Assembly: GCA_015059285.1 (NCBI GenBank)
Contig: SVAS01000001.1
Span: 68,217 to 132,216, forward strand
Reading direction: 5' to 3'
Origin: Bacillota bacterium
GTDB taxonomy: Bacteria > Bacillota_I > Bacilli_A > RF39 > UBA660
DNA length: 64,000 nt
Under the pieces are notes generated by a model, which ran no database searches, was not told where the DNA came from, and was given only the letters and a program-made list of their open reading frames with translations. Positions within the stretch are counted from its first letter, which is position 1, and every line of letters starts with the position of its first letter. Made by a program: the position numbers and the translations under genes. Of the stretch, positions 6,732 through 63,837 are shown one piece after another.

Positions 6732-6789
6732 TATAATAATAAATAATTATTTAAAAACGAAGAAAAAGAGTAGTAATAAGTAACTTTAT

Positions 6790-6948
6790 TTAAAGAGAGA
6801 AAGTGGTTGGTGAAAACTTTCATTAAAGTCTTATGAACTTGCTTTGGAGTTTGATCCGCTTGTAGCGTTAAAACATTTGAGTGCATAAGTATTATGAAAT
6901 AAGGTGGTACCACGGGTAAAACTCGTCCTTATACATAATACTTTTTTG
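6790..6948 (+). promoter_or_regulatory. T-box riboswitch leader (Leu specifier CUU) upstream of leuS
   Basis: Stem I start agagagaaagtggttggtgaaaac, T-box motif aaggtggtaccacgg at 6901-6915, downstream U-run; candidate specifier context gaaCUUg/gtCUUa. Confidence 0.8.
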
Positions 6949-7307: not shown

Positions 7308-10127
7308 ATGTTTAATCATAGTGAAATAGAAAAAAAATGGAGAGAATATTGGGAAGAACACAATACTTTTAAAACTGATGTATGGGACTTTTCTAAACCA
7401 AAGTTTTATGCATTAGATATGTTTCCATATCCATCAGGAGTAGGTTTACATGCAGGACATCCTGAAGGATATACCGCAACTGATATTGTGTCTCGTATGA
7501 AAAGAATGCAAGGATATAATGTACTTCACCCAATGGGATTTGACTCTTTTGGTCTTCCTGCTGAACAATATGCAATAAGCACTGGAAATCATCCAGATGG
7601 ATTTACTAACGATAATATTAAAACTTTTAAAGAACAATTAAAATTATTGGGTTTATCTTATGATTGGGATAAAGAAGTATCAACTTGTGATCCAAATTAT
7701 TATAAATGGACACAATGGATATTTAAAAGGTTATATGAAGATGGACTTGCTAAATACGTTGATATGCCTGTAAACTGGTGTGAAGAATTAGGAACTGTAC
7801 TTGCTAATGATGAAATCATTGATGGTAAAAGTGAAAGAGGAGGATATCCTGTTGTTCGTAAAAATATGAAACAATGGGTTATAGATATACCTAAATATGC
7901 TGAAAAACTATTAGATGGTTTAAATGAAATTGATTGGCCAGAATCAACTAAAGAAATGCAAAGAAATTGGATTGGTAAAAGTATAGGAGCACATGTTAAA
8001 TTTAAAGTAAAAGATACTGATAAATCATTTACAGTATTTACTACTAGATGTGATACTTTATTTGGTGCTACTTACTGTGTTTTATCACCAGAACATGAAC
8101 TTGTAGATTTAATTACAACTAGTGATAAAAAAGAAGAAGTAGATGCTTATAAAAAGGTATGTGCTACTAAATCAGAAATGGAAAGAACAGAGCTCAATAA
8201 AGAAAAAACAGGTGTATTTATAGGAGCATATGCTATTAATCCTGTTAATAATAAAGAAATTCCTATTTGGATTTCAGATTACGTTCTAGCAACCTATGGA
8301 ACAGGAGCTATTATGGCAGTTCCTGCTCATGATGAAAGAGACTATGAATTTGCTAAAAAATTTAATATTGATATTATTCAAGTATTAGAAGAAGTTACAG
8401 GAACTCCTCATGAAAACGAATCTACAAAAAATAGTATCGTAGCTATTTTATATGATGAAAAAAACAATAATTATTTAACAATCAATTGGGGTAATTTAGG
8501 TGGTAGATTATTTATTGGGGGAAGCATTAAAGAAGGTGAAACACCTTTAGAATGCGCTATTAGAGAAGTAAAAGAAGAAACAGGCTATGTAAATATAGAA
8601 TTATTACAAGAATTACCTAAAATTAATCATCATTATTATGCTTATAATAAAGATAAATATTTTAATATTGAAAGTACTGGTTTTGTTTTCAAATTAGTTA
8701 ATGATGAAAAAATAGAACAAAACTTAGATGAAGATGAAAAATTCACTGTAGAATGGGTTTCAGAAGAAACAGTAAATAAAGAAATTACTGAACAATTACA
8801 TAAAAAGACTTATGAATATTATTTAAATAATGGTGCTATGTGTGGAGATGGTATTCACATTAATTCTGACTTTTTAAATGGTTTAAATAAAGAAGATGCT
8901 ATAAATAAAATGACTGAGTGGCTAGAAGAAAATAAGTTTGGTAATAAACAAATAAATTATCGTTTAAGGGAATGGATTTTTGCCCGTCAAAGATATTGGG
9001 GAGAACCAATACCAGTAGTTCATTTTGAAGATGGAACAAGTGCATCCATAGACGATTCTGAATTACCTTTAGTACTTCCAGAATTAGAAGATTATAGTCC
9101 AAGTAAAAGTGGAGCATCTCCACTTGAAAAAGCAACTGATTGGGTAAATGTAGAAATAGATGGTAAAAAAGCAAAAAGAGAAACTAGTACAATGCCTGGT
9201 TCAGCGGGTTCTAGTTGGTATTTCTTAAGATATATTGACCCACATAATGAAAATGCAATAGCAGATAAAAAACTATTAGAACATTGGTTACCAGTAGATC
9301 TTTATGTAGGTGGACCAGAACATGCAGTAGGTCATTTACTTTATTCTAGAATGTGGAATAACTATTTATATGATATAGGAGTTGTTCCAGTAAAAGAACC
9401 ATTTAAAAAATTAGTACATCAAGGAATGATATTAGGTGAAAATGGAATTAAAATGGGTAAAAGATATCCAGAATTTGCTGTTAACCCTAATGACATTGTA
9501 AAAGAATATGGTGCTGATACATTAAGGCTTTATGAAATGTTTATGGGACCTTTAGAAGCTGATAAACCATGGAGTAAAAAAGGTGTTGAAGGAGCTAGAA
9601 GATTTTTGGATCGTATATATAGACTATATACAGAAGAAAATAAAATTCAAGAAACACAAAATACAAATTTAGAAAAAATCTACAATCAAACAGTTAAAAA
9701 AGTAACAGAAGATTATGAAACATTAAACTTTAATACAGCAATTAGTAGTATGATGATATTCGTAAATGCAGTTTATAAAGAAGACATATTCCCAAAAGAA
9801 TATGCAGAAGGATTTGTTAAATTATTAAATCCAGTAGCCCCTTACTTAGCTGAAGAATTATGGAACTTATTAGGTCATAATGATACAATTGCATACGAAT
9901 CTTGGCCTACTTATGATGAAACTAAAATTGTAGATGAAACTTATACTATGATTGTACAAGTTAATGGTAAAGTACGTGGAAAAATAGAAGTTTCTACTGA
10001 TACAACAAATGACCAAATGGAAGAACTTGCTAAAACAAATGAAAATGTTATTAAAAATATTGAGGGAAAAGAAATTGTTAAAGTAATTGTTGTTCCTAAA
10101 AAATTAGTTAATATTGTAGTAAAATAA
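7308..10127 (+). CDS. leuS: leucyl-tRNA synthetase with inserted Nudix hydrolase domain
   Basis: Aligns end to end with B. subtilis LeuRS ([12 protein letters not shown] motif, KMGKR KMSKS motif), but about 145 extra residues lie between FEFAKKF and [14 protein letters not shown] and contain the Nudix box [23 protein letters not shown]. Confidence 0.95.
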
Positions 10128-10152
10128 ACACTAGAAAATCTAGTGTTTTTTA
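10128..10152 (+). terminator. leuS terminator
   Basis: hairpin acactagaaaatctagtgt followed by T-run. Confidence 0.7.
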
Positions 10153-10159
10153 AATTTTT

Positions 10160-10212
10160 ATTTATGTTGTACTTCTGTTCTAAATAATAAAAGTATGTAT
10201 AATAAAACTTGT
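10160..10212 (+). promoter_or_regulatory. conserved promoter of pilin-like paralog 1 (extended -10 TGTATAAT)
   Basis: tttatgttgtacttctgttc...gtatgTATAATaaaacttgttagaataggagtg is nearly identical to the region upstream of paralog 2. Confidence 0.6.
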
Positions 10213-10230
10213 TAGAATAGGAGTGAGTTT

Positions 10231-11307
10231 ATGAAGAGAAAAGGATTTACCTTAATTGAACTGTTAGCAGTAATAGTAATACTAGCAATTATAGCGCTTA
10301 TTGCAGTGCCAGTTATTATGAACATTATCAGCAGTGCAAGAAAGAGTGCATTTGAGGATACAGCATATGGATTAATAAGTGCAGGGGAAATGTACTATGC
10401 AAACAATATATTAAGTGGAGCCACTTCTGATGATGTAGAATTTACAATTACAAATGGAGAATTTGTAGGAGAAAACAAATTAGAAGTAAAAGGTTCATTA
10501 CCAGCAAGTGGGAAAGTAAAGGTTACAAAAGATGGAAAAGTTGCAATTGCTGTAAATAATGGAAATTATTGTATAACAAAAGCAACAAGTGAAAGCAAAA
10601 TACAAACAGAAGAACTTGCAGGAGAATGTACTTATAGAAAGGTATTAAATCCAATAGTCACATCAACTGAGGCATGTATTACAAATGTAAATGAAATATG
10701 TGGTGATGATGTAATAAAAGCAGGAATCGCTGTTCAAGTAAAAGTAAATGATAAAGAAGAAGCAAAAACATTCTATGTGGTAAAAGATAATGCTACAACA
10801 GGAACATTAACATTAATCATGGATAGAAACATAGATCAAACAACAGTAGCGTGGATAACAAAAGAGGAATATTTAAGTGCAGGGGGAACAGAAGCAGAAT
10901 GGAGTTATGATGCTTATGGTTTTGGCACAGAAGGAAACTCTAATAAAGGTCCAATCACAGCGTTAAATTATTTAGAAAGCAAAACAGCAAATTGGACAAA
11001 CATTCATACTAAAAATTATACAGTTTCTGATGAACACGGAAAGTATATAGTAGAAAGAACAAACGCAAGGGCAAGAATGCTTTCAAAAACAGAAACATTG
11101 AGTTTAGGTTGTGTAATGTATGATGCAGGATGTCCAGTTTGGTTATATAATGGAATTGGATACTGGTTAAGTACTTCTGATACAGATTTCCCTATAACTG
11201 ATGCTTTAAATATGCCTAGTAGTGGTTATGTATCTGGTCTACCAATCTATCGCGATGATTATAGAGGTGTACGCCCAGTAATAGAAATACCTAAAACTAT
11301 AATATAA
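10231..11307 (+). CDS. type IV pilin-like protein paralog 1 (358 aa): prepilin N-terminus plus conserved C-terminal domain
   Basis: MKRKGFTLIELLAVIVILAIIALIAVP class III signal (G/F cleavage site, Glu at +5); C-terminal motifs TLIMDRNI, GPITALNYLE, ARARML, CPVWLY, GVRPVIEI. Confidence 0.85.
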   Translation: MKRKGFTLIELLAVIVILAIIALIAVPVIMNIISSARKSAFEDTAYGLISAGEMYYANNILSGATSDDVEFTITNGEFVGENKLEVKGSLPASGKVKVTKDGKVAIAVNNGNYCITKATSESKIQTEELAGECTYRKVLNPIVTSTEACITNVNEICGDDVIKAGIAVQVKVNDKEEAKTFYVVKDNATTGTLTLIMDRNIDQTTVAWITKEEYLSAGGTEAEWSYDAYGFGTEGNSNKGPITALNYLESKTANWTNIHTKNYTVSDEHGKYIVERTNARARMLSKTETLSLGCVMYDAGCPVWLYNGIGYWLSTSDTDFPITDALNMPSSGYVSGLPIYRDDYRGVRPVIEIPKTII

Positions 11308-11315
11308 TAATATAA

Positions 11316-11343
11316 AGTCTCAATAATTATTGAGATTTTTTTA
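11316..11343 (+). terminator. terminator after pilin-like paralog 1
   Basis: tataaagtctcaataattattgagatttttttattt hairpin plus T-run; resembles the pheT terminator that precedes paralog 2. Confidence 0.7.
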
Positions 11344-11388
11344 TTTATTTATGATAAAATAAAATTGATGTAACAATGGAGGGTTTTT

Positions 11389-20379: not shown

Positions 20380-21156
20380 ATGGATAATATTCAAAAATTA
20401 ACAGAATCATTTCAAGCTAATACAAAGATTGATGAAAATACTAAAGGAAACTTAGAATACTTAATAAGTGTTTTTCAAAAACGTTTTCCAAGCGTATCTT
20501 TAGATAATTTTTGTGAAAGATTAAAAACATTGCAAGTTGTACGTGGTAGTAAATATGTATTTGAAGAAGCTACTCAATATAATCCTAAAGATAATACCAT
20601 CGTAATTAATCAAGGATTATTACAACAAGAAAAAGTTGATGCACGTCATAGTATGATGAAAACTTTATTATCAATTATAACTGCTAAAGATTTGAGTTAT
20701 GGTTTTGCAACTAATAGAAGTTTAGAAGCTTTAAATGTAGGTTTTTGTGAAATCGTTGCAAATAACTTAGTTGGTAATGAAGGTGAGAGTAGTTATGAAG
20801 ATGAACAAATACTTGTAAATTCTATAGGTAGTTCTATTGGTTTAGAACCATTTATTGATGCGTTTTTCACTAATAATTCAGATTTACTTATAACAAAATT
20901 ATTTGCAAGATGTGGATCTTCTGTAGCTTTAGATAAATTTTTAAGTCAAGCAAACCATAATATGCATACAAGAAAGCAAATGGGTACTAGTAGATTATTT
21001 GCTTTACAACAAGATGCTTATTTAATGTTTGGTTCAGGTTATGATTTTATAATGAATAAAAGAACAATGGAAGAAACAATAGGTTTAAAATATCCAGAAA
21101 GTGAAAAATTAGAACAATTATCCAAAACAGATTTAGTTGAAACAATGAAAAGGTGA
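20380..21156 (+). CDS. hypothetical protein (258 aa)
   Basis: ORF immediately upstream of gltX with 4-nt spacing; no motif recognised. Confidence 0.4.
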   Translation: MDNIQKLTESFQANTKIDENTKGNLEYLISVFQKRFPSVSLDNFCERLKTLQVVRGSKYVFEEATQYNPKDNTIVINQGLLQQEKVDARHSMMKTLLSIITAKDLSYGFATNRSLEALNVGFCEIVANNLVGNEGESSYEDEQILVNSIGSSIGLEPFIDAFFTNNSDLLITKLFARCGSSVALDKFLSQANHNMHTRKQMGTSRLFALQQDAYLMFGSGYDFIMNKRTMEETIGLKYPESEKLEQLSKTDLVETMKR

Positions 21157-22813: not shown

Positions 22814-23029
22814 TATTATTACCTCCTCTCTATAAGAGATTTGGTAGACACCCAACAGTTAAATATTTCTAACAACATTATACCACTTGTCTATGTTCAA
22901 GTGAATTAAAATAGTTAATTATTTGTGAAAATATTAAAATACAAATTGGTATTTCAATATTTGTAAAATTGTGTTATAATATAAGCAGTTTAAAGGCAAA
23001 GACGAAGAAGTAGTAATAAAATTAATTAT

Positions 23030-23212
23030 TTAAAGAGAGTTAGTGGTTGGTGAAAACTAATAATAATATTTTATGAATTCATCTTCAGAGCTTTATATAC
23101 TAAATATATAACGGTAACGCGTTACAGTTTTAAGGCAAGTTGATAGACTTGTAAATTAAGGTGGTACCACGTAAACACGTCCTTATTGGATTGTGTTTTT
23201 TTTAATAATTAG
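23030..23212 (+). promoter_or_regulatory. T-box riboswitch leader (Phe specifier UUC) upstream of pheST
   Basis: agagagttagtggttggtgaaaac stem I start, gaaUUCa specifier context, T-box aaggtggtaccacg at 23158-23171, T-run; extended -10 TGTTATAAT at about 22968-22976. Confidence 0.8.
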
Positions 23213-26641: not shown

Positions 26642-26649
26642 CATATATA

Positions 26650-26679
26650 AAGTCTCTAGATTTTCTAGAGATTTTTTTA
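26650..26679 (+). terminator. pheT terminator
   Basis: tataaagtctctagattttctagagattttttt hairpin plus T-run. Confidence 0.75.
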
Positions 26680-26740
26680 TTTGCAATTTATGTTGTACTT
26701 CTATTCTAAAAAGTAAAAGGATGTATAATAAAACTTGTTA
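26680..26740 (+). promoter_or_regulatory. conserved promoter of pilin-like paralog 2
   Basis: atttatgttgtacttctattctaaaaagtaaaaggaTGTATAATaaaacttgttagaataggagtg is nearly identical to the region upstream of paralog 1. Confidence 0.6.
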
Positions 26741-26756
26741 GAATAGGAGTGGGAAA

Positions 26757-27863
26757 ATGAAGAAAAAAGGTTTCACGTTAATTGAACTATTAGCAGTAAT
26801 AGTAATACTAGCAATAATAGCGCTTATAGCAGTACCAGTAATAATGAATATTATAAGTAGTGCAAGAAAGAGCTCGTTTGAGGATACTGCATATGGAATA
26901 ATTAGTGCCGGTGAATTATACTATGCTGAAAAGTTGCTTGAACCAAATGGAATGACTAGTGATGCAGAATTTACATTTACAAATGGAAGAGTTACTCCAA
27001 CAGGATTAAATGTAAAAGGTTCATTACCAAAAAGTGGTTCAATGGTAGTAACAAAAGAAGGAAAAATAGCAATCGCAATAACTAATGGAGAATTATGTAT
27101 AACAAAAGGATATGATGATAGCAAAATAGAAACATTAGAAGAATTTGAAAGTTGTGACTTACCAGCAAAAAAATTAAGTGAGCTTGTAAAAACAAATGAT
27201 TTTGCGGAAAGTGTAGATGCGTGTGCGACGAGCGGAACATGTTCATCAGGAACGCCATTTGCAATCGAAGTAGCCCCTGGAAATATTCAAAATTTCTATG
27301 TAATCAGTGATGTAAATAATGTAGTAACACTAATTATGGATAGAAACATTGGTAATACAGTGGCTTGGATTACTCAAGGTGATTATAATGACGATGATTC
27401 TTGGGAAGTTTGTTATGAAGAAGGTACTATAGAAGAGTGGTGTGAATATGGAAATAGTAATAAAGGACCAATAACAGCATTAAATTACTTAGAAATACAA
27501 ACATCAGGATGGACAAATATAGAGGCAAAGAATTACACATTAACAGATGATAATACAACACCAAAATACACAATTGAAAGAACAGGAGCTAGAGCAAGAA
27601 TGTTAACCAAAACAGAAGCGTTAGCAGTAGGATGTAGTGGATGGTATGACGGAGATGAAGCTACATGTCCAGACTGGTTATATGGTAATTTAGATGATAA
27701 TGCAGTTCCTTGGGGTTACTGGACAAGTTTTGCTGATGCGGACACTACTCACCTCGTTTGGTTTGTAGAAAATGATGGTTCTATGAACTTAACCGACCCG
27801 GAATATGGCTACTATGATGGCTACTACTATGGTGTGCGCCCAGTTATTGAAGTTTCAAAATAA
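26757..27863 (+). CDS. type IV pilin-like protein paralog 2 (368 aa)
   Basis: MKKKGFTLIELLAVIVILAIIALIAVP; C-terminal motifs TLIMDRNIGNTVAW, NSNKGPITALNYLE, GARARMLTKTE, CPDWLYGNL, YGVRPVIEVSK. Confidence 0.85.
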   Translation: MKKKGFTLIELLAVIVILAIIALIAVPVIMNIISSARKSSFEDTAYGIISAGELYYAEKLLEPNGMTSDAEFTFTNGRVTPTGLNVKGSLPKSGSMVVTKEGKIAIAITNGELCITKGYDDSKIETLEEFESCDLPAKKLSELVKTNDFAESVDACATSGTCSSGTPFAIEVAPGNIQNFYVISDVNNVVTLIMDRNIGNTVAWITQGDYNDDDSWEVCYEEGTIEEWCEYGNSNKGPITALNYLEIQTSGWTNIEAKNYTLTDDNTTPKYTIERTGARARMLTKTEALAVGCSGWYDGDEATCPDWLYGNLDDNAVPWGYWTSFADADTTHLVWFVENDGSMNLTDPEYGYYDGYYYGVRPVIEVSK

Positions 27864-27873
27864 TAAATTTATA

Positions 27874-27904
27874 AAGAATAGTAAAATTTACTATTCTTTT
27901 TTTA
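27874..27904 (+). terminator. terminator after paralog 2
   Basis: agaatagtaaaatttactattct hairpin plus T-run. Confidence 0.75.
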
Positions 27905-27989
27905 TTTAGAAGGAATTTATAAATAAAAGATGTATATTATTAGTAACATATTTTCACAACTCCCTTAATAAAATTATAGGGGTGAGACT

Positions 27990-35800: not shown

Positions 35801-36259
35801 ATGGAGAAATTTAATCGAACACTTCGTGGCTATGATCCAGAAGAAGTAAATGCTTTTGTAGATCAAGTCATTGGCCAAGTTGAAAAGATGGTTAGTGAAG
35901 GTAAACTTAAAGATGCTAAAATAAAAGAACTAAAGTCTTTAGAAGTAGAAAATGTACGTTTAAAAGAAAAAATTGCACAATATGAACGTATGGAAGGAAC
36001 TTTAAATAAAGCTATATTAATGGCCCAAAAGACTTCTGATCAAATAAAGACTAATGCTCATAGAGAAAGTGAAATTATTTTAGAAGATGCTAAACGAAAT
36101 GCTAGTCGTATTGTTAATGAAGCTTTACTTAGAGCTGAAAAAACAGAGATGGAAGCAAATATGTTAAAACGTAATATTAATATATTTAAACGTCGTTTAA
36201 GAAGTATTATCGAACAACAACTTGAAATGGTTAATGATATTGAAAAAGTAGATTTTTAA
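35801..36259 (+). CDS. divIVA: DivIVA-domain protein
   Basis: FNRTLRGYDPEEVNAFVDQV N-terminal DivIVA motif, coiled coil. Confidence 0.8.
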   Translation: MEKFNRTLRGYDPEEVNAFVDQVIGQVEKMVSEGKLKDAKIKELKSLEVENVRLKEKIAQYERMEGTLNKAILMAQKTSDQIKTNAHRESEIILEDAKRNASRIVNEALLRAEKTEMEANMLKRNINIFKRRLRSIIEQQLEMVNDIEKVDF

Positions 36260-36294
36260 AACAGATGATAGAGACGATATACAAATTAGTCTTG

Positions 36295-36462
36295 CTAGAG
36301 AGTTAGTGGTTGGTGGAAACTAATGAAGAAGGTTGTATATAGATCACTCTAGATGTTTCTAATATAGAACGGTGACGCGTTATAGTTTTGAGTGTATAAT
36401 TTTTATAAAATAAGGTGGTACCGCGGGTAAAACTCGTCCTTAATTGGATGAGTTTTTTTGTT
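36295..36462 (+). promoter_or_regulatory. T-box riboswitch leader (Ile specifier AUC) upstream of ileS
   Basis: agagagttagtggttggtggaaac stem I start, tagAUCa specifier context, T-box aaggtggtaccgcgg, terminator actcgtcc/ggatgagt plus U7. Confidence 0.85.
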
Positions 36463-47133: not shown

Positions 47134-47165
47134 AAAAAACTTCTAGAATTTCTAGAAGTTTTTAT
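47134..47165. terminator. bidirectional terminator between convergent genes
   Basis: near-perfect palindrome aaaacttctagaatttctagaagtttt. Confidence 0.7.
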
Positions 47166-48193: not shown

Positions 48194-49336
48194 ATGAAAA
48201 TACTTAAAAAAGATAATCAAGAACTTGACGTAAAAAAAATTAATGAAGTTGTTGGAGTGTCTAAAAGGATTCTTAAAATAGCTTATATTTTGTTTATTGT
48301 TTTAGCTATCTATGTTTTTATTAAGGTAAGCAAAGAACTAAATATAATGAATTTTTTAATAACACTTTTGAAAATAGTTTCACCACTATTTATTGGTATT
48401 GTTATAGCATGGCTATTTAATCCGATTGTTACATATTTACAAAAAAAAGGTATGAGAAGAGGTTTAGGAGCAACACTTTCATATTTTGCATTAGTTGGTT
48501 TATTAACTATTGTAATTTGGTCTATAGTGCCAACCTTATCTGAACAAATAAATGATTTTGCTGGTATGATACCACAATTATTCGATACTATAAAGGAGTG
48601 GATTGATACTATTTTTGAAGGATTAAATAATATTGAAAGTTTTGATGCTCTTGCTATCAAATCCGATTTATTTAAAGCCATTGAAGAATTTGGGGTTAAT
48701 TTAACTAATTCACTTCCAACGATGGTAGTTAATATTATTAGTTCATTGTTTTCAGGACTTGGTACAATTTTAATTGGGTTAGTGATAGGATTTTATTTAT
48801 TAATTAGTGTTGATGGAACTGATAATCTAATTAATTTATTACCTAAGAAGATGCAAGAGACAACTCGTGATTTATTAACTGAAATAGATGGTTCTTTTAG
48901 AAGTTTTGTTCAAGGGGCGCTTTTAGATTCAACATTCGTATTTATTATTACATCTATTGGATTTTCTTTAATAGGATTAAAAGCACCACTATTCTTTGGA
49001 CTTTTCTGTGGAATTACTAATGTTATTCCATATGCAGGACCTTATATAGGTGGGGCACCTGCTGTTATAGTAGGTTTTTCACAAGGAATTCCAACAGGAA
49101 TATTAACTTTAGTGGTAATTGTTTTAATTCAATTTTTAGAAGGTAATTTCTTACAACCTTTAATAATGAGTAAAACAACTAAATTACATCCTGTTACAAT
49201 CATGTTAGGTCTTTTAGTCTTTGGTTATTTCTGGGGAATTATTGGTATGGTTATTTCAACTCCAATAATTGCTGCTTCTAAAGCAATTTTGATGTTTTTA
49301 GACGAAAAATATGATATACTATCATTTAGTGATTAA
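48194..49336 (+). CDS. AI-2E family transporter (UPF0118/PerM)
   Basis: 8 TM topology and conserved Gly-rich C-terminal half typical of AI-2E. Confidence 0.7.
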   Translation: MKILKKDNQELDVKKINEVVGVSKRILKIAYILFIVLAIYVFIKVSKELNIMNFLITLLKIVSPLFIGIVIAWLFNPIVTYLQKKGMRRGLGATLSYFALVGLLTIVIWSIVPTLSEQINDFAGMIPQLFDTIKEWIDTIFEGLNNIESFDALAIKSDLFKAIEEFGVNLTNSLPTMVVNIISSLFSGLGTILIGLVIGFYLLISVDGTDNLINLLPKKMQETTRDLLTEIDGSFRSFVQGALLDSTFVFIITSIGFSLIGLKAPLFFGLFCGITNVIPYAGPYIGGAPAVIVGFSQGIPTGILTLVVIVLIQFLEGNFLQPLIMSKTTKLHPVTIMLGLLVFGYFWGIIGMVISTPIIAASKAILMFLDEKYDILSFSD

Positions 49337-49371
49337 AGCGATGAAGAAAGAAAGTAGAATAATTTGTTTTT

Positions 49372-49530
49372 AAAGAGAGTTAGTGGTTGGTGGAAACTAA
49401 TAAATAAATTATTTGAAAGCTACTTTCTGAGTATAGTAAAAACTATCGGAAAAATCCGTTATCAAAATTAAGAACAAATTAGGATGGTACCACGGTTTTT
49501 TCGTTCCTAGAAAATAACCGTGGTTTTTTT
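49372..49530 (+). promoter_or_regulatory. T-box riboswitch leader (Ala specifier GCU) upstream of the dNMP-kinase-like/cmk/alaS operon
   Basis: agagagttagtggttggtggaaac, gaaaGCUa specifier context at 49429-49431, T-box ggatggtaccacgg, terminator ccacggtt...aaccgtgg plus U7. Confidence 0.85.
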
Positions 49531-50741: not shown

Positions 50742-52490
50742 ATGAATTTAAAAGATTTATATATTGATTTTTTTGTTAGTAAAGGGCATAAACAAATACC
50801 TTCTGCGCCTGTAATACCTGAAAATGACCCTTCAGTGCTATTTAATACAGCAGGTATGCAACCTTTAATTCCATATTTAATGGGTCAAGCTCATCCATAT
50901 GGAAAAAGATTAGTTGATTATCAAAAATGCATTAGAACTAATGATTTAGATAGTATTGGAGATACAACTCATCATACTTTTTTTGAAATGTTAGGTAATT
51001 GGAGTTTAGGCGATTATTTTAAAAAGGAAAGTATTTCTTGGAGTTTTGAATTTTTAACAAGTGTTTTAAAAATACCTGTTGAAAAACTAGCTGTAACAGT
51101 ATTTGCAGGTAATAATGATATCCCTGAGGATACTGAATCTATTGAAATTTGGAAAAGTTTAGGAATAAAAGAAGGAAGGATTGCTAAAACAGTAGAAGAT
51201 AATTTTTGGATTGCAGGTGAAACAGGACCTTGTGGACCAGATACTGAAATATTTTATTTCCGTAGTGAAGATGAAATTCCTGAAATATTTGATCCAGAAG
51301 ATAATCGTTGGGTAGAAATTTGGAATAATGTTTTTATGCAATATAATAAAAGTTTAGATGGAAGTATTTCTGAACTTCCAAATAAAAATGTTGATACAGG
51401 AATGGGTGTTGAAAGAGTTGTAGCAATATTAGAAGGTGTTAATGATAACTATACAACTTCTATTTGGAAAGATGTTATAAATAAAATTGAAGAATTATCA
51501 AATATTAAATATGAAGAAAATAAAGAAAGTATGCGTATTATAGCGGATCATTTAAGAACAGCTGTATTTATCTCTGCTGACCCAACTGGTATAAAACCTT
51601 CTAATACTGACCAAGGCTATATTTTAAGAAGATTAATTCGTAGAGCTATTAGACATGCTAAAAAATTAAATATAGATATGAATAGTGATTGGGAACAAGA
51701 GATAGCTTTAATTATTTTAGATAAATATTCAAAATATTACAGTGAATTAGAAGCTAATAAACAAGTAGTATTAGAAGTATTAAAAAATGAAAGAATTAAA
51801 TTTAATCGTACTTTAGAAAAAGGTTTAAGAGAATTTGAAAAAATAGCTAGTAATATTACAGATGGAAAACTAAATAAAGATTTAGCTTTTAAACTTTATG
51901 ATACTTATGGTTTTCCAATTGAACTTACAGTAGAACTAGCAAGTGAATTAAATTTATTAGTAGATGTAGATGGATTTAAAGAAAAATTTAAAGCACATCA
52001 AGAACTTTCAAGAGCAGGAGCTAGTGCTAAATTTAAAGGTGGTCTAGCTGGAGATGGAGAGGCTGAAACTAAATATCATACAGCAACACATTTACTTAAT
52101 GCTGCTTTAAAAGTTGTTGTAAATGAAGATGTTCATCAAAAAGGAAGTAATATTACATCTGAAAGGATGCGTTTTGACTTTTCTTGTGACCATAAATTAA
52201 CAGCTGAAGAAAAACAAAAAGTAGAAGAGTTAGTAAATAAGTGGATTAAAGAAGAAATTCCTATAACTAAGGAAGAAATGAATAAAGAAGAAGCTTTAAA
52301 ATCAGGTGCTGAGTGTATGTTCATAGAAAAATATCCAGATGTTGTAACAGTATATAGTATTGGTAATATTTCTAAAGAATTATGTGGTGGACCACATGTA
52401 GAAAATACTAAAGAATTAGGTGTTTTTGAAATTAAAAAAGAAGAAGCTAGTAGTGCTGGTGTAAGAAGAATAAAAGCTATTTTAAAATAA
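50742..52490 (+). CDS. alaS: minimal alanyl-tRNA synthetase (583 aa: catalytic, tRNA-recognition and editing core; no beta-barrel, no C-Ala)
   Basis: FNTAGM, FEMLGNWSLGDYFK, GVERV class II motifs; the editing HTATHLL ... CGGPHVENT ... AGVRRIKA follows directly after AKFKGG. Confidence 0.85.
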   Translation: MNLKDLYIDFFVSKGHKQIPSAPVIPENDPSVLFNTAGMQPLIPYLMGQAHPYGKRLVDYQKCIRTNDLDSIGDTTHHTFFEMLGNWSLGDYFKKESISWSFEFLTSVLKIPVEKLAVTVFAGNNDIPEDTESIEIWKSLGIKEGRIAKTVEDNFWIAGETGPCGPDTEIFYFRSEDEIPEIFDPEDNRWVEIWNNVFMQYNKSLDGSISELPNKNVDTGMGVERVVAILEGVNDNYTTSIWKDVINKIEELSNIKYEENKESMRIIADHLRTAVFISADPTGIKPSNTDQGYILRRLIRRAIRHAKKLNIDMNSDWEQEIALIILDKYSKYYSELEANKQVVLEVLKNERIKFNRTLEKGLREFEKIASNITDGKLNKDLAFKLYDTYGFPIELTVELASELNLLVDVDGFKEKFKAHQELSRAGASAKFKGGLAGDGEAETKYHTATHLLNAALKVVVNEDVHQKGSNITSERMRFDFSCDHKLTAEEKQKVEELVNKWIKEEIPITKEEMNKEEALKSGAECMFIEKYPDVVTVYSIGNISKELCGGPHVENTKELGVFEIKKEEASSAGVRRIKAILK

Positions 52491-52491
52491 C

Positions 52492-52513
52492 AGATTTTAT
52501 ATCTGTTTTTTTT
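52492..52513 (+). terminator. alaS terminator
   Basis: cagattttatatctg hairpin plus T8. Confidence 0.7.
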
Positions 52514-52519
52514 GTTTGT

Positions 52520-52640
52520 GATTTATGTTATAGAAACCACTTTAATTATAGTTTTATGTATAATAAAAATGTCAACGATAGCAAAATAAAACATAATGTT
52601 ATTGACAACAAAATATTTATGTTATAAAATTATTTTAGAA
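52520..52640 (+). promoter_or_regulatory. conserved dual promoter and long leader of pilin-like paralog 3
   Basis: extended -10 TGTATAAT at 52557-52564; TTGACA-16-TATAAA at 52602-52629; repeated tTATGTTATA motifs; about 85% identical to the region upstream of paralog 4. Confidence 0.6.
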
Positions 52641-52718
52641 CAATATGTTATACAAGGTAAATAAATGTATAAAAGGATAAAAGGTTGTTCAAAATAAGAA
52701 AGAAGGAGTGGAAAGAAA

Positions 52719-53766: not shown

Positions 53767-53796
53767 AAAGGATGATAAAAATCATCCTTTTATAAT
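53767..53796 (+). terminator. terminator after paralog 3
   Basis: aaaggatgataaaaatcatccttttat; the same hairpin core follows the dacF-like gene upstream of paralog 4. Confidence 0.65.
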
Positions 53797-61194: not shown

Positions 61195-62346
61195 ATGAAA
61201 AAGATATTAGTTTTATTACTCATTAGTTTTATGTTTATTCCAAATATAAAAGCAGAGGAGGCAAGTACACTTGCTGAAAATAGCAAAAGTGCTATTTTAT
61301 TAGAACCAACAACAGGTGAAATTATATATGAAAAAAATATTCATGAAAAATTACCTCCTGCTTCTATGACTAAATTAATGTCAATGTTACTCATTATGGA
61401 AAGTATTGATAAAGGAGTTATTAAATGGGATGAAATGGTTACCGTATCCTCAAATGCATCAGGAATGGGAGGAAGTCAAATACTACTTGAAACTGGAGAA
61501 CAAATGACAGTAGAAGATTTATTTAAAGGAGTAGCAATCGCAAGTGGTAATGATGCTGTAGTCGCTCTAGCTGAAAAAATTGCTGGTACTGAAGAAATGT
61601 TTGTTAAAATGATGAATGATAAAGTAAAAGAATTAGGATTAAAAAACACTAATTTTAAAAATCCTCATGGATTAGATGCGGCTAACCATTATTCTACTGC
61701 TTATGACATGGCTATGATTGCTAAAGAACTTATTAAACATGAAAAAGTATTAGAATATACATCTATATATGAAACATATTTAAGACAAAACTTACCAACT
61801 AAAATATGGCTTGTTAATACCAATAGATTAGTACGTTTTTATAGTGGTTTAGATGGACTTAAAACAGGGTATACTGGAGAGGCTGGTTATTGTTTAACTT
61901 TTACAGCTAAAAATGGTAATATGAGATTACTTGGTGTTGTTATGGGAGAACCAACTAGTGATACAAGAAATGAAGAAGTAAAAGAAATGCTTGATTATGG
62001 ATTTGCACAATATGAAGTAGAAACAATGTTATCAACTAAAAGTATTTTAGATACTAAAGAAGTAGATAAAGGTAAAAAAAGATATGTTAATTTAGTACCA
62101 AAAGAAGATATTAATTTTTTAAATAAAAAAACAGATGGCAAAAGAAATGCTAGTTATGAGGTTAAAATAGATAATTTAAAAGCTCCTTTAAAAGTAGGCG
62201 ATAAAGTAGGTACATTAATTATTAAAGAAAATAATAACACTAGGAAAGTAGATATAACTGTATCAGAAAACATAGAAAAAGCTAATATATTAGAATTATT
62301 TATAAGACATTTGGAGGATATAATAACTGGTAATATTAAGTTTTAA
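61195..62346 (+). CDS. D-alanyl-D-alanine carboxypeptidase (PBP5/DacF-like, S11 family)
   Basis: signal peptide, SMTKLM (SxxK), SGN, KTG motifs. Confidence 0.85.
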   Translation: MKKILVLLLISFMFIPNIKAEEASTLAENSKSAILLEPTTGEIIYEKNIHEKLPPASMTKLMSMLLIMESIDKGVIKWDEMVTVSSNASGMGGSQILLETGEQMTVEDLFKGVAIASGNDAVVALAEKIAGTEEMFVKMMNDKVKELGLKNTNFKNPHGLDAANHYSTAYDMAMIAKELIKHEKVLEYTSIYETYLRQNLPTKIWLVNTNRLVRFYSGLDGLKTGYTGEAGYCLTFTAKNGNMRLLGVVMGEPTSDTRNEEVKEMLDYGFAQYEVETMLSTKSILDTKEVDKGKKRYVNLVPKEDINFLNKKTDGKRNASYEVKIDNLKAPLKVGDKVGTLIIKENNNTRKVDITVSENIEKANILELFIRHLEDIITGNIKF

Positions 62347-62372
62347 AGGATGATTAAATTCATCCTTTTATT
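62345..62372 (+). terminator. terminator after the carboxypeptidase gene
   Basis: aaaggatgattaaattcatcctttt hairpin. Confidence 0.65.
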
Positions 62373-62377
62373 TATGT

Positions 62378-62500
62378 TATAGAAACCACTTCAAATAAAG
62401 TTTATGTATAATAAATATGTCAATGATAGTAAAGTAAAACAATATATTATTGACACCGAAATGTTTATGTTATAAAATTAATCTAGAACAATATGTTATA
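62378..62500 (+). promoter_or_regulatory. conserved dual promoter and long leader of pilin-like paralog 4
   Basis: about 85% identical to the region upstream of paralog 3, including TGTATAAT, TTGACA...TATAAA and repeated TTATGTTATA motifs. Confidence 0.6.
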
Positions 62501-62565
62501 CAAACTAAACAAATGCATAAAAGAATAAAAAGTTGTTCAAGATAAGAAAGAAGGAGTGGAATAGT

Positions 62566-63621
62566 ATGAAGAAAAAAGGATTTACATTAATAGAATTACT
62601 AGCAGTGATAGTAATACTAGCAATAATAGCATTAATAGCAGTACCAGTTATAATGAATATCATAAGTAGTGCAAGAGAAAGTGCATTTGAAGATACTGCA
62701 TATGGACTTATTGATGCAGGAGAGATGTATTATGCAAGTTCATTATTAGAAAATGGAATGACTAGTGATGTAGAGTTCACAATTGAAGATGGAAAGTTTG
62801 TAGGAGAAAACAAACTAGAAGTAAAAGGAGCACTTCCAACAAATGGAAAAATAACAGTAACAAAAGATGGAAAAGTTGCTATTGCTGTAAATAATGGAGC
62901 ACATTGCGTAACAAAAGCAACAAGCGAAAGTGCAATCACAACAGTTAAATATGAAGGAAGTTGTGAATATAAAAAAGCAGCAAATCCAATCATCACATCA
63001 ACTGAGGCATGTATCACAAATGCAAACGAAACATGTAGTGAAGACGCAATAAAAGCAGGAATTGCAGTAAATGTTAAAGTAAACGAAAAAGAAGAAGCAA
63101 AAACATTCTATGTAGTAAAAGACGATGCTACAACTAACACATTAACATTAATCATGGATAGAAATATTGGAGAAACAGTAGCTTGGATTAGTGAAAAAGA
63201 CTATGGATGTGGAGAAGCCGGAGATTATTGTTCAACAAACGAAAAAGGGCCACTAACAGCCTTAACTTACTTAGAAAGTAAAACAAGTAGTTGGACAAAC
63301 ATCCCAGCAAAAACATATACATTAGCAGACGATCAAGGACAATACACAATAGAAAGAACAAATGCAAGAGCTCGAATGTTAACACATGATGAAGCAATAG
63401 ATTTGTTAGGATGTGTAGAAAATGACACAGGATGTCCAGCATGGTTGTATGGGAATTTAGGAACTAGTAACCCACCATTTGGCTTCTGGCTAAGCTCTGC
63501 TCCTGCGGACGATGCTTACTTCGCTTGGTTCGTGGGCAGCGGCGGTGGCGTTGACGACGGCGTCATCACTGGCTTCTCCGGTGTGCGCCCAGTTATCGAA
63601 ATCTCAAAATCTATCATCTAG
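62566..63621 (+). CDS. type IV pilin-like protein paralog 4 (351 aa)
   Basis: MKKKGFTLIELLAVIVILAIIALIAVP; about 65% identical to paralog 1; C-terminal SGVRPVIEISKSII; ATG at 62566 with GGAGTGG RBS. Confidence 0.85.
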   Translation: MKKKGFTLIELLAVIVILAIIALIAVPVIMNIISSARESAFEDTAYGLIDAGEMYYASSLLENGMTSDVEFTIEDGKFVGENKLEVKGALPTNGKITVTKDGKVAIAVNNGAHCVTKATSESAITTVKYEGSCEYKKAANPIITSTEACITNANETCSEDAIKAGIAVNVKVNEKEEAKTFYVVKDDATTNTLTLIMDRNIGETVAWISEKDYGCGEAGDYCSTNEKGPLTALTYLESKTSSWTNIPAKTYTLADDQGQYTIERTNARARMLTHDEAIDLLGCVENDTGCPAWLYGNLGTSNPPFGFWLSSAPADDAYFAWFVGSGGGVDDGVITGFSGVRPVIEISKSII

Positions 63622-63715
63622 ACTTAAGTATTTGTAGTAATGTAATACGAAGTTAGAAATAAGGTTTTGAAAAGAATGATAATAAGAGCACGTATGTAAG
63701 CATTCTCTGATTTCT

Positions 63716-63748
63716 TGATAAAAAATACGCTTCGCGTATTTTTTTTGC
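63716..63748. terminator. bidirectional rho-independent terminator
   Basis: aaaaaatacgcttcgcgtatttttttt. Confidence 0.75.
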
Positions 63749-63837
63749 ACTTTTGACATTACACATCAAAAGTAAAGTGTAACTTCAAAAACATTTGAAA
63801 TTTTAATTGATGTATGTTTTTTTGTGAAAAAATATCA

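Follow-up and report, generated by a model that had tools for sequence, protein, structure and literature searches.

Why should the hairpin behind one member of a gene family nearly repeat the hairpin in front of another? The question is raised by a 64,000-nt stretch of DNA (hereafter the window; contig SVAS01000001.1 of assembly GCA_015059285.1, positions 68,217 to 132,216) from the metagenome-assembled genome (MAG) of an uncultured gut Bacillota bacterium with a GC content of 26%, in which four paralogous genes, P1 to P4 (also called W1 to W4), encode pilin-like proteins and are each flanked by terminator-like hairpins. We found that a hairpin behind one paralog resembles a hairpin in front of a different one more often than control terminators resemble each other, and on balance we lean towards the reading that these look-alike hairpins are passive relics of the multiplication of a terminator-bounded pilin unit and not a working shuffling device. 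The initial annotation of this sequence had gone further, suggesting that the units may once have been tandem or may be exchanged by recombination between hairpins, and that either case points to an engine for copy-number or antigenic variation.

The four hairpin sequences quoted in that annotation were all recovered and form two pairs. In the first, the hairpin downstream of P1 (11311-11346) and that upstream of P2 (26646-26682), which is also the pheT terminator, are identical in the outer stem and flanks, comprising the 11-mer TATAAAGTCTC and the 15-mer GAGATTTTTTTATTT, and unlike in the inner stem and loop (AATAATTATT vs TAGATTTTCTA). The heptamer ATTTATG lies directly behind one copy of the hairpin and after a 3-nt insertion/deletion in the other, and beyond it no significant similarity was found (shuffle p = 0.13), in line with the proposal that homology breaks right after the shared tttatg; a decayed promoter block behind P1 beyond ATTTATG was thereby ruled out. 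In the second pair, the proposed match between the hairpins downstream of P3 (53767-53793) and upstream of P4 (62345-62371) amounts to 25 identical positions out of 27, both mismatches lying in the loop. The matched parts of these hairpins are at most 34 nt long. Two further comparisons were discarded: terminal repeats within one unit, since a paralog's own upstream and downstream hairpins gave scores of 11-24, which is background; and compensatory changes between look-alike hairpins, which any two perfect hairpins that differ will display by construction. As a separate observation, the palindromic core CTAGAnnnTCTAG is common to three terminators (10126-10148, 26649-26675 and 47135-47163), two of which stand in front of the sister paralogs P1 and P2, the third being unrelated to the family.

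The sequence surveyed, about 250 kb, comprised the window and some 190 kb more of the same genome obtained through exact-protein look-ups; paralogs outside the window bear the names A5, A6, B7, D9, D10, F12, G13, H15 to H18 and I20. Terminators predicted across the survey were cleaned to a set of 118, with 18 upstream of paralogs, 17 downstream, one in both positions and 82 others, and all pairs were scored by local alignment of 52-nt windows centred on the loop, pairs with at least one non-paralog terminator (n = 6,273) serving as controls. A score of 44 or more was reached by 3 of 324 downstream/upstream pairs (D10 downstream/G13 upstream, 48; P1/P2, 47; P3/P4, 44) and by 2 of the 6,273 control pairs, an approximately 29-fold enrichment (Fisher p = 0.001). 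At a score of 32 or more the figures were 8/324 and 32/6,273 (Fisher p = 0.0006), and trimming the windows to exclude the promoter block left p at 0.0005-0.004. Weaker independent pairs were P2 downstream/F12 upstream, I20 downstream/P3 upstream and A5 downstream/P4 upstream. Because of this enrichment over control pairs, the resemblance is unlikely to be due to chance for the set as a whole, and the likeness exceeds that among the random intrinsic terminators of this genome, the comparison by which the initial annotation had proposed to be judged. For any pair taken singly, chance still has to be reckoned with.

The main rival explanation is therefore chance resemblance, or convergence, among constrained terminators, which at 26% GC all consist of an A-tract, a short purine-rich stem and a T-tract, so that a few look-alikes are expected. 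The seeds of the two window pairs, taken alone and with one mismatch allowed, occur at chance frequency (3 matches against 3.0 expected and 12 against 12.1), self-BLAST of the pairs is weak (E = 0.002 and E = 0.37), and control pairs reach scores of 38-41. Nevertheless, the enrichment is robust to the choice of windows, and the best control look-alikes are low-complexity matches of the AAAGAGAAAA...TTTTCTCTTTT type, whereas the top three downstream/upstream pairs have complex stems and match in their loops as well. The two control pairs that scored 44 or more were one pair of homologous T-box terminators and one low-complexity match; T-box terminators were the only homologous look-alikes within the control set. 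In addition, the frame ATAAAG...TTTTTTTATTT (ATAAAG/T7ATTT) was found among the 118 terminators only downstream of P1, upstream of P2 and downstream of P2, a three-way distribution that would be expected if a unit once located behind P1 had been copied with the hairpin in front of it. We therefore regard chance as an unlikely explanation, though one to be taken seriously.

Order along the chromosome also argues against chance. In both window pairs, the hairpin behind a paralog matches the one in front of the paralog that comes next on the chromosome, which is the order that a former junction would leave, and such a match occurs in 2 of 9 consecutive paralog pairs and in 1 of 315 others. Clear homologies between hairpins in the same position indicate, moreover, that the hairpins travel with the genes. 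For example, the upstream hairpins of D9 and H15 are near identical, although the preceding genes (one for an AI-2E-family transporter, the other a DHH-family gene) are unrelated; those of A6 and D10 are common to both with few changes; P4 and H16 have about 110 nt of 3' untranslated region (UTR) and terminator in common; and P3 and A5 share a downstream hairpin together with the TTTTATAAT that follows. Stems of the type AAAGATR flank paralogs in six of seven cases. Present-day tandem arrangements, in which a terminator separates the pilin genes, are seen in this genome, as H16-H17-H18 (locus L097) and as A6 followed by a gene for a 554-aa protein (L083), and tandem pilin genes also occur in the distant relatives L001 and L008. 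The repeated hairpin-promoter-gene-hairpin unit of the initial annotation is thus borne out, both by the layout of 18 of 18 copies and by the hairpins shared between paralog pairs, whereas its suggestion that the units once stood in tandem is plausible only.

A possible course of events can be outlined. The terminator of the preceding housekeeping gene, whose T-tract abuts the promoter block, would stop read-through, and the paralog's own terminator would close the unit. The family would have grown by the copying of segments ending in or next to terminators, with the flanking hairpins copied along. At a head-to-tail junction, or in a copied segment spanning one, a single hairpin would close one unit and at the same time precede the next, and its descendants would now be found behind one paralog and in front of a different one. 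We infer that the duplicated units passed through a tandem or circular intermediate before being dispersed, and that the likeness of the hairpins serves no function today; a former head-to-tail arrangement is plausible.

Several findings weigh against the reading of the hairpins as relics. The hypothesis itself arose from two of the three top pairs; the independent data add one strong pair, D10 downstream/G13 upstream, and D10 and G13 are not neighbours. The palindromy of a hairpin halves the independent information in a match, so that the number of independent positions is half its length. In a scan of a large metagenome collection, which evidently does not include the contigs of this species, the outer stem TAAAGTCTC...GAGATTTTTTTAT was found in 23 unrelated DNA stretches, suggesting that such terminators arise independently; this and the palindromy both favour chance. 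The closest pair of paralogs, P4 and A5, 89.7% identical over 1,166 nt, has neither hairpin in common. Finally, third-codon identity between paralogs is only 68%, but matching hairpins are 92-100% identical, better preserved than would be expected of an old neutral relic, which may call for constraint, a later event or luck. Since the hairpins are better kept than silent sites, the duplication events may be more recent than the divergence of the genes suggests, or the hairpins may be constrained.

Constraint leads to a second rival explanation, according to which the promoter architecture extends to the upstream terminator and its T-tract, which would act as an insulator and as an A/T tract resembling an UP element, and selection or a shared binding factor keeps the hairpins alike. 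The layout of the copies is regular. All 18 full-length copies examined show the preceding gene's terminator hairpin, a T-tract, 0-10 bases and a conserved block starting ATTTATGTTRTA, and all have the promoter block, a ribosome-binding site and a start codon; each one-gene unit thus runs from the preceding gene's terminator through the conserved promoter block and the gene to the gene's own terminator. The promoter block comes in a short form of about 75 nt (10 copies) and a long form of about 200 nt (8 copies), the latter adding a promoter-like site, TTGACA-17-TAAAAT. In all 18 copies the T-tract runs up to ATTTATG, the blocks are 85-90% conserved despite diverged silent sites, and the distant relative L002 keeps a terminator-TTTTTTTGTG-AATTTATATTATAA arrangement ahead of its homologue, all of which would suit a functional role. 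However, stem sequences vary widely among the 18 upstream hairpins, with no conserved stem motif beyond a loose AAAGAT start, and constraint of this kind leaves the match of a downstream terminator to another gene's upstream one unexplained, so that we consider it improbable as the cause of the resemblance.

The third rival explanation takes up the proposal of active mobilisation or exchange, in which the hairpins would be sites of excision, insertion or swapping (through hairpin-targeted recombination, or template switching at palindromes) and thereby generate variation. The coincidence of unit boundaries with hairpins in all 18 copies would agree with this, as would the chimeric look of the hairpin upstream of P2, which has the outer stem and flanks of the P1-downstream hairpin and an inner CTAGA core resembling that of the P1-upstream hairpin. 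In contrast, no integrase, transposase or invertase gene was called adjoining any copy in the window or in eight 21-kb loci, where the flanks are housekeeping genes. Nor did a search for a hairpin consensus, which the initial annotation had proposed, reveal one common to the family or a common core site: the pattern AAAGTCTC..GAGATTTT, representing the P1/P2 type, occurred among the fetched loci only at the two window sites and in copies of the P2 site from other samples, and the census of 118 terminators contained no large hairpin family. Solo promoter blocks, considered as possible scars of excised cassettes, were absent, as were empty sites: nhmmer searches with both promoter-block profiles gave 18 places, all of them before paralogs. 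The presence of the preceding gene's stop codon within the upstream hairpin was discarded as a sign of insertion, being equally common at unrelated terminators (18/44 vs 9/16).

The loci compared were 99.6-100% identical between assemblies, with some 20 contigs per paralog collapsing into the same neighbourhoods, although the comparison at the D10 locus (L100 vs L091), with 2 differences in 12.6 kb, is uninformative. Silent third-codon positions within the invariant N-terminal 30 codons have the 68% identity between paralogs given above, and the copies therefore appear to be old, not kept alike by recent conversion, with the N-terminus apparently held by purifying selection; recent gene conversion as the source of the invariant N-terminus was ruled out on the same ground. 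Stability between assemblies and old paralogs both speak against the proposed engine of copy-number or antigenic variation, and the idea of hairpin-to-hairpin recombination fares no better, given the lack of a family-wide consensus, the lack of a recombinase gene called beside the copies and the position of the breakpoints described below.

Possible signs of recombination were seen within the genes themselves. The homology between P4 and A5, the next paralog about 6 kb downstream of P4, begins at ATTTATG and ends some 90 nt short of the stop codon (L083:3626-4785 vs 9806-10961; window 62370-63529), the last 90 nt or so and both hairpins being different, a pattern suggestive of a conversion tract or of partial duplication. 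In L086 (117-905; window 62566-63350), the P4 locus from another sample, 74 differences were counted over 17 kb, 73 of them confined to the first 780 nt of P4, and the sequence upstream is unrelated, so that this copy may be either a recombinant allele or a contig-end artefact. In L101 (10001-11032 and downstream), the B7 sequence runs for 831 nt from its start and then gives way to the 3' end of another paralog and to a different neighbourhood, the latter containing dnaG, rpoD, a gene for a 900-aa PilC-like T2SSF protein and a prepilin peptidase gene; this may be either an inter-paralog rearrangement or an assembly chimera, and the D hairpin of the chimeric allele had no notable match. Several database proteins are also mosaics of known paralogs. 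These mosaics would favour active exchange, but the breakpoints of both mosaic alleles lie inside coding sequence and not at hairpins, at contig ends and repeats where short-read assembly is unreliable, and we treat L086 and L101 as leads only. Since, in addition, all copies are complete with promoters and show no division into an expression site and silent copies, active exchange through the hairpins is in our view very improbable.

A variant of the copying process may be mentioned here, in which terminator hairpins would serve as break and join points of a recombinase-independent copying that continues at low frequency and gives rise to strain-to-strain differences in pilin repertoire. A complete promoter-pilin-terminator unit would be moved to a place just behind the terminator of a highly expressed housekeeping gene, either by template switching or by way of a circular intermediate that is resolved at palindromes or T-tracts. 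We give this variant little credence; the relic reading remains the one that we prefer.

All features of the four window loci described here lie on the forward (+) strand. The genes directly upstream of P1 to P4 are leuS, pheT, a short alaS and a D-Ala-D-Ala carboxypeptidase gene, respectively, and the upstream hairpins therefore double as terminators of these housekeeping genes. Each of the eight hairpins flanking P1 to P4 folds into one stem-loop (-7.2 to -13 kcal/mol; z = -3.2 to -5.8) with a U-tract behind. Relative to the stop codon of the gene that they follow (leuS, pheT, alaS, the carboxypeptidase gene or a paralog), they lie between about 20 nt before it and 100 nt after it; the terminator scan detected most of the eight as well. 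With stable stem-loops followed by U-tracts, they are predicted to be ordinary intrinsic (Rho-independent) terminators.

At the P1 locus, the leuS terminator (10126-10148; -10.3 kcal/mol, with the CTAGAnnnTCTAG core and a U-tract) directly precedes a short-class promoter/5' UTR block at 10155-10230, of the form ATTTATGTTGTAC ... TGTATAAT ... AGGAGTG, which was detected by nhmmer with E = 4e-19 and is 87% identical to that of P2. P1 itself (10231-11307) encodes a 358-aa prepilin-type protein identical to P0055, and is followed by its terminator at 11311-11352 (TATAAAGTCTC...GAGATTTTTTTATTT, then ATTTATG; -9.5 kcal/mol). At the P2 locus, the pheT terminator (26646-26682; -12.7 kcal/mol) is followed by a short-class block at 26683-26756 (E = 1e-19), by P2 (26757-27863), whose 368-aa prepilin-type product is identical to P0001 (MBE6144034.1), and by a terminator at 27873-27910 that has the ATAAAG...TTTTTTTATTTA frame seen at 11311 and 26646 around another stem.

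The long promoter form is found at the other two loci. Ahead of P3, the sequence at 52484-52512 folds as the alaS terminator and is followed by a long-class block at 52513-52718 (E = 2e-52), with the second promoter-like site TTGACA-17-TAAAAT; P3 (52719-53711) encodes a 330-aa prepilin-type protein with an N_methyl match, and its terminator, AAAGGATGATAAAAATCATCCTTTTAT (53767-53793; -13 kcal/mol), is also like the downstream terminator of A5. Ahead of P4, the terminator of the D-Ala-D-Ala carboxypeptidase gene (62345-62371; -11 kcal/mol) overlaps that gene's stop codon and is followed by a long-class block at 62368-62565 (E = 2e-53); P4 (62566-63621) encodes a 351-aa prepilin-type protein, again with an N_methyl match, and its 3' UTR and terminator (63622-63752; hairpin at 63720-63744) are homologous to those of H16.

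An Rfam search revealed four T-box leaders only and nothing in the promoter blocks. The leaders, at window positions 6751-6933, 22990-23187, 36256-36444 and 49332-49511, lie ahead of the leuS, pheST, probable ileS and alaS operons. In the leucyl-tRNA synthetase (window 7308-10127, 939 aa), residues 377-503, directly after the editing domain, form a NUDIX hydrolase domain (PF00293, E = 1.9e-15), an insertion that is unusual for this enzyme.

The family to which P1 to P4 belong is large. We found 20 pilin-like genes with a common N-terminus in the survey, 18 of them full length (324-368 aa) and two encoding short pilins, one of 139 aa and the other cut by the end of the locus, and all of them lie on the strand of their neighbours, scattered among housekeeping genes. 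The best protein-search matches of the paralogs fell mostly on the same long contigs, from an uncultured 'Firmicutes/Bacillota bacterium' MAG, and a profile search of genome contigs with the paralog alignment yielded only distant relatives of at most 44% identity, mostly N-terminal. Four of the 20 lie directly behind aminoacyl-tRNA synthetase genes (leuS, pheT, alaS and another class I enzyme, L097:18930) and others behind ftsZ, efp, rpsP-khpA and a thioredoxin gene, which suggests a preference of the copies for positions that follow highly expressed housekeeping genes. The two short pilins (L097:20204-20623 and 20650-21017) stand in tandem just after H16, about 2.8 kb before the start of the window, and are probably major pilins. 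The gene for the 554-aa pilin-like protein that follows A6 is at L083:14046-15710. Two paralogs of the same NCBI MAG, MBE6144877.1 (P0123) and MBE6144819.1 (P0124), were clustered together at 90% protein identity and are therefore recent duplicates. Several distantly related MAGs (L003, L012, L015, L023 and L061) have, about 100-200 nt upstream of a pilin-like gene, a short ATG-started stretch ending in a run of 7-11 G, which could be a slippage-prone tract.

The products of the four window paralogs, of 330-368 aa, all carry the prepilin N-terminal methylation motif PF07963 (N_methyl; E = 5e-9 to 7e-8), with a class III signal peptide of sequence MKKKG|FTLIELLAVIVILAIIALIAVP that includes a short basic leader, the G|F cleavage site, Glu5 and a hydrophobic alpha-1 helix. 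Their first 50 residues or so are near invariant and their C-terminal halves variable. A profile search of the PDB with the four paralogs matched only pilin N-terminal helices (MshA, PilE1 and PilA), and the AlphaFold2 model of the P2 product (mean predicted local distance difference test score 88) has a helix at residues 8-60, a beta head at 70-127 and extra structured elements, forming an additional module, at 140-367. On the strength of the prepilin motif, the pilin-helix matches and this modelled architecture, the proteins are likely to be modular type IV pilins consisting of a pilin N-terminal helix and a variable C-terminal module. The resemblance of the latter to Lcl_C/DUF1566 is faint (E = 0.055), although NCBI nonetheless names some members DUF1566. 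In a Foldseek search of the PDB with the P2 model (26757-27863), the sole significant match was the IgA peptidase of Thomasclavelia ramosa, 9qa6 (E = 7.6e-4, 269 aligned columns, 15% identity). Genes for T2SSF and Peptidase_A24 proteins, candidates for assembly machinery and prepilin peptidase, occur on L101, from the same species.

If the relic reading is correct, the hairpins would be the footprint of the spread of a large surface-protein family through a small gut-bacterial genome, as self-contained terminator-to-terminator units slotted behind housekeeping genes. This would be of use in annotating such families, with terminators suggested as marks of the ends of duplicated segments. The evolutionary footprint is modest and reveals no new mechanism, and to those working on type IV pili the gene family may be more interesting than the hairpins, with at least 20 modular pilins that combine one invariant N-terminus with variable heads and conserved private promoters.

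In structure the hairpins do not differ from intrinsic terminators, having a G/C-containing stem-loop of 8-12 pairs and a U-tract right after stop codons, with energies of -7 to -13 kcal/mol; several have an upstream A-tract and are predicted to be able to act in both directions, and the peculiarity here is that a few share sequence across the loci of one gene family. Repeated palindromic elements of the REP (repetitive extragenic palindromic), MITE (miniature inverted-repeat transposable element) and Correia types may double as terminators, and are similarly short intergenic palindromes recurring at several loci. Such elements would be present in many copies with a consensus and independently of any one gene family, whereas each hairpin type here occurs only two or three times, without a genome-wide consensus, and is tied to one gene family. 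Integron gene cassettes are promoterless units with attC hairpin sites, marked by R''/L''-L'/R' boxes, that are handled by the tyrosine integrase IntI at attI. The units described here are likewise bounded by imperfect palindromes, the element after one unit preceding the next, but no integrase was called and there is no array with IntI and attI beside it; the copies have promoters of their own and lie among housekeeping genes, and the hairpins are heterogeneous, without conserved R/L boxes and with a T-tract behind.

Antigenic variation of the pilin in Neisseria, in which pilE and pilS loci carry the conserved Sma/Cla repeat at their 3' side, offers a parallel in the large number of copies with conserved 5' and variable 3' parts, in a conserved non-coding element downstream of some copies, and in the mosaic alleles, which hint at inter-copy exchange. 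That system rests on one expressed locus and promoterless, truncated silent copies. In contrast, every copy here is of full length and carries a promoter, a ribosome-binding site and a start codon (the promoter block being present in 18/18), no single expression locus stands out, no downstream repeat is common to all copies, and silent sites diverged long ago. The closest likeness in the proteins is to modular type IV pilins, exemplified by PilB and PilC of Streptococcus sanguinis (PMC8179133). As judged from sequence and model, the paralogs share with them the prepilin motif, the alpha-1 helix, a small pilin head and an extra C-terminal module, and the same genome has 139-aa short pilins with the same N-terminus as well as PilC-like T2SSF and prepilin peptidase genes; the modular pilins of other systems, however, are encoded by one or two genes inside a pil operon, whereas here at least 20 paralogs are dispersed, each with a promoter of its own.

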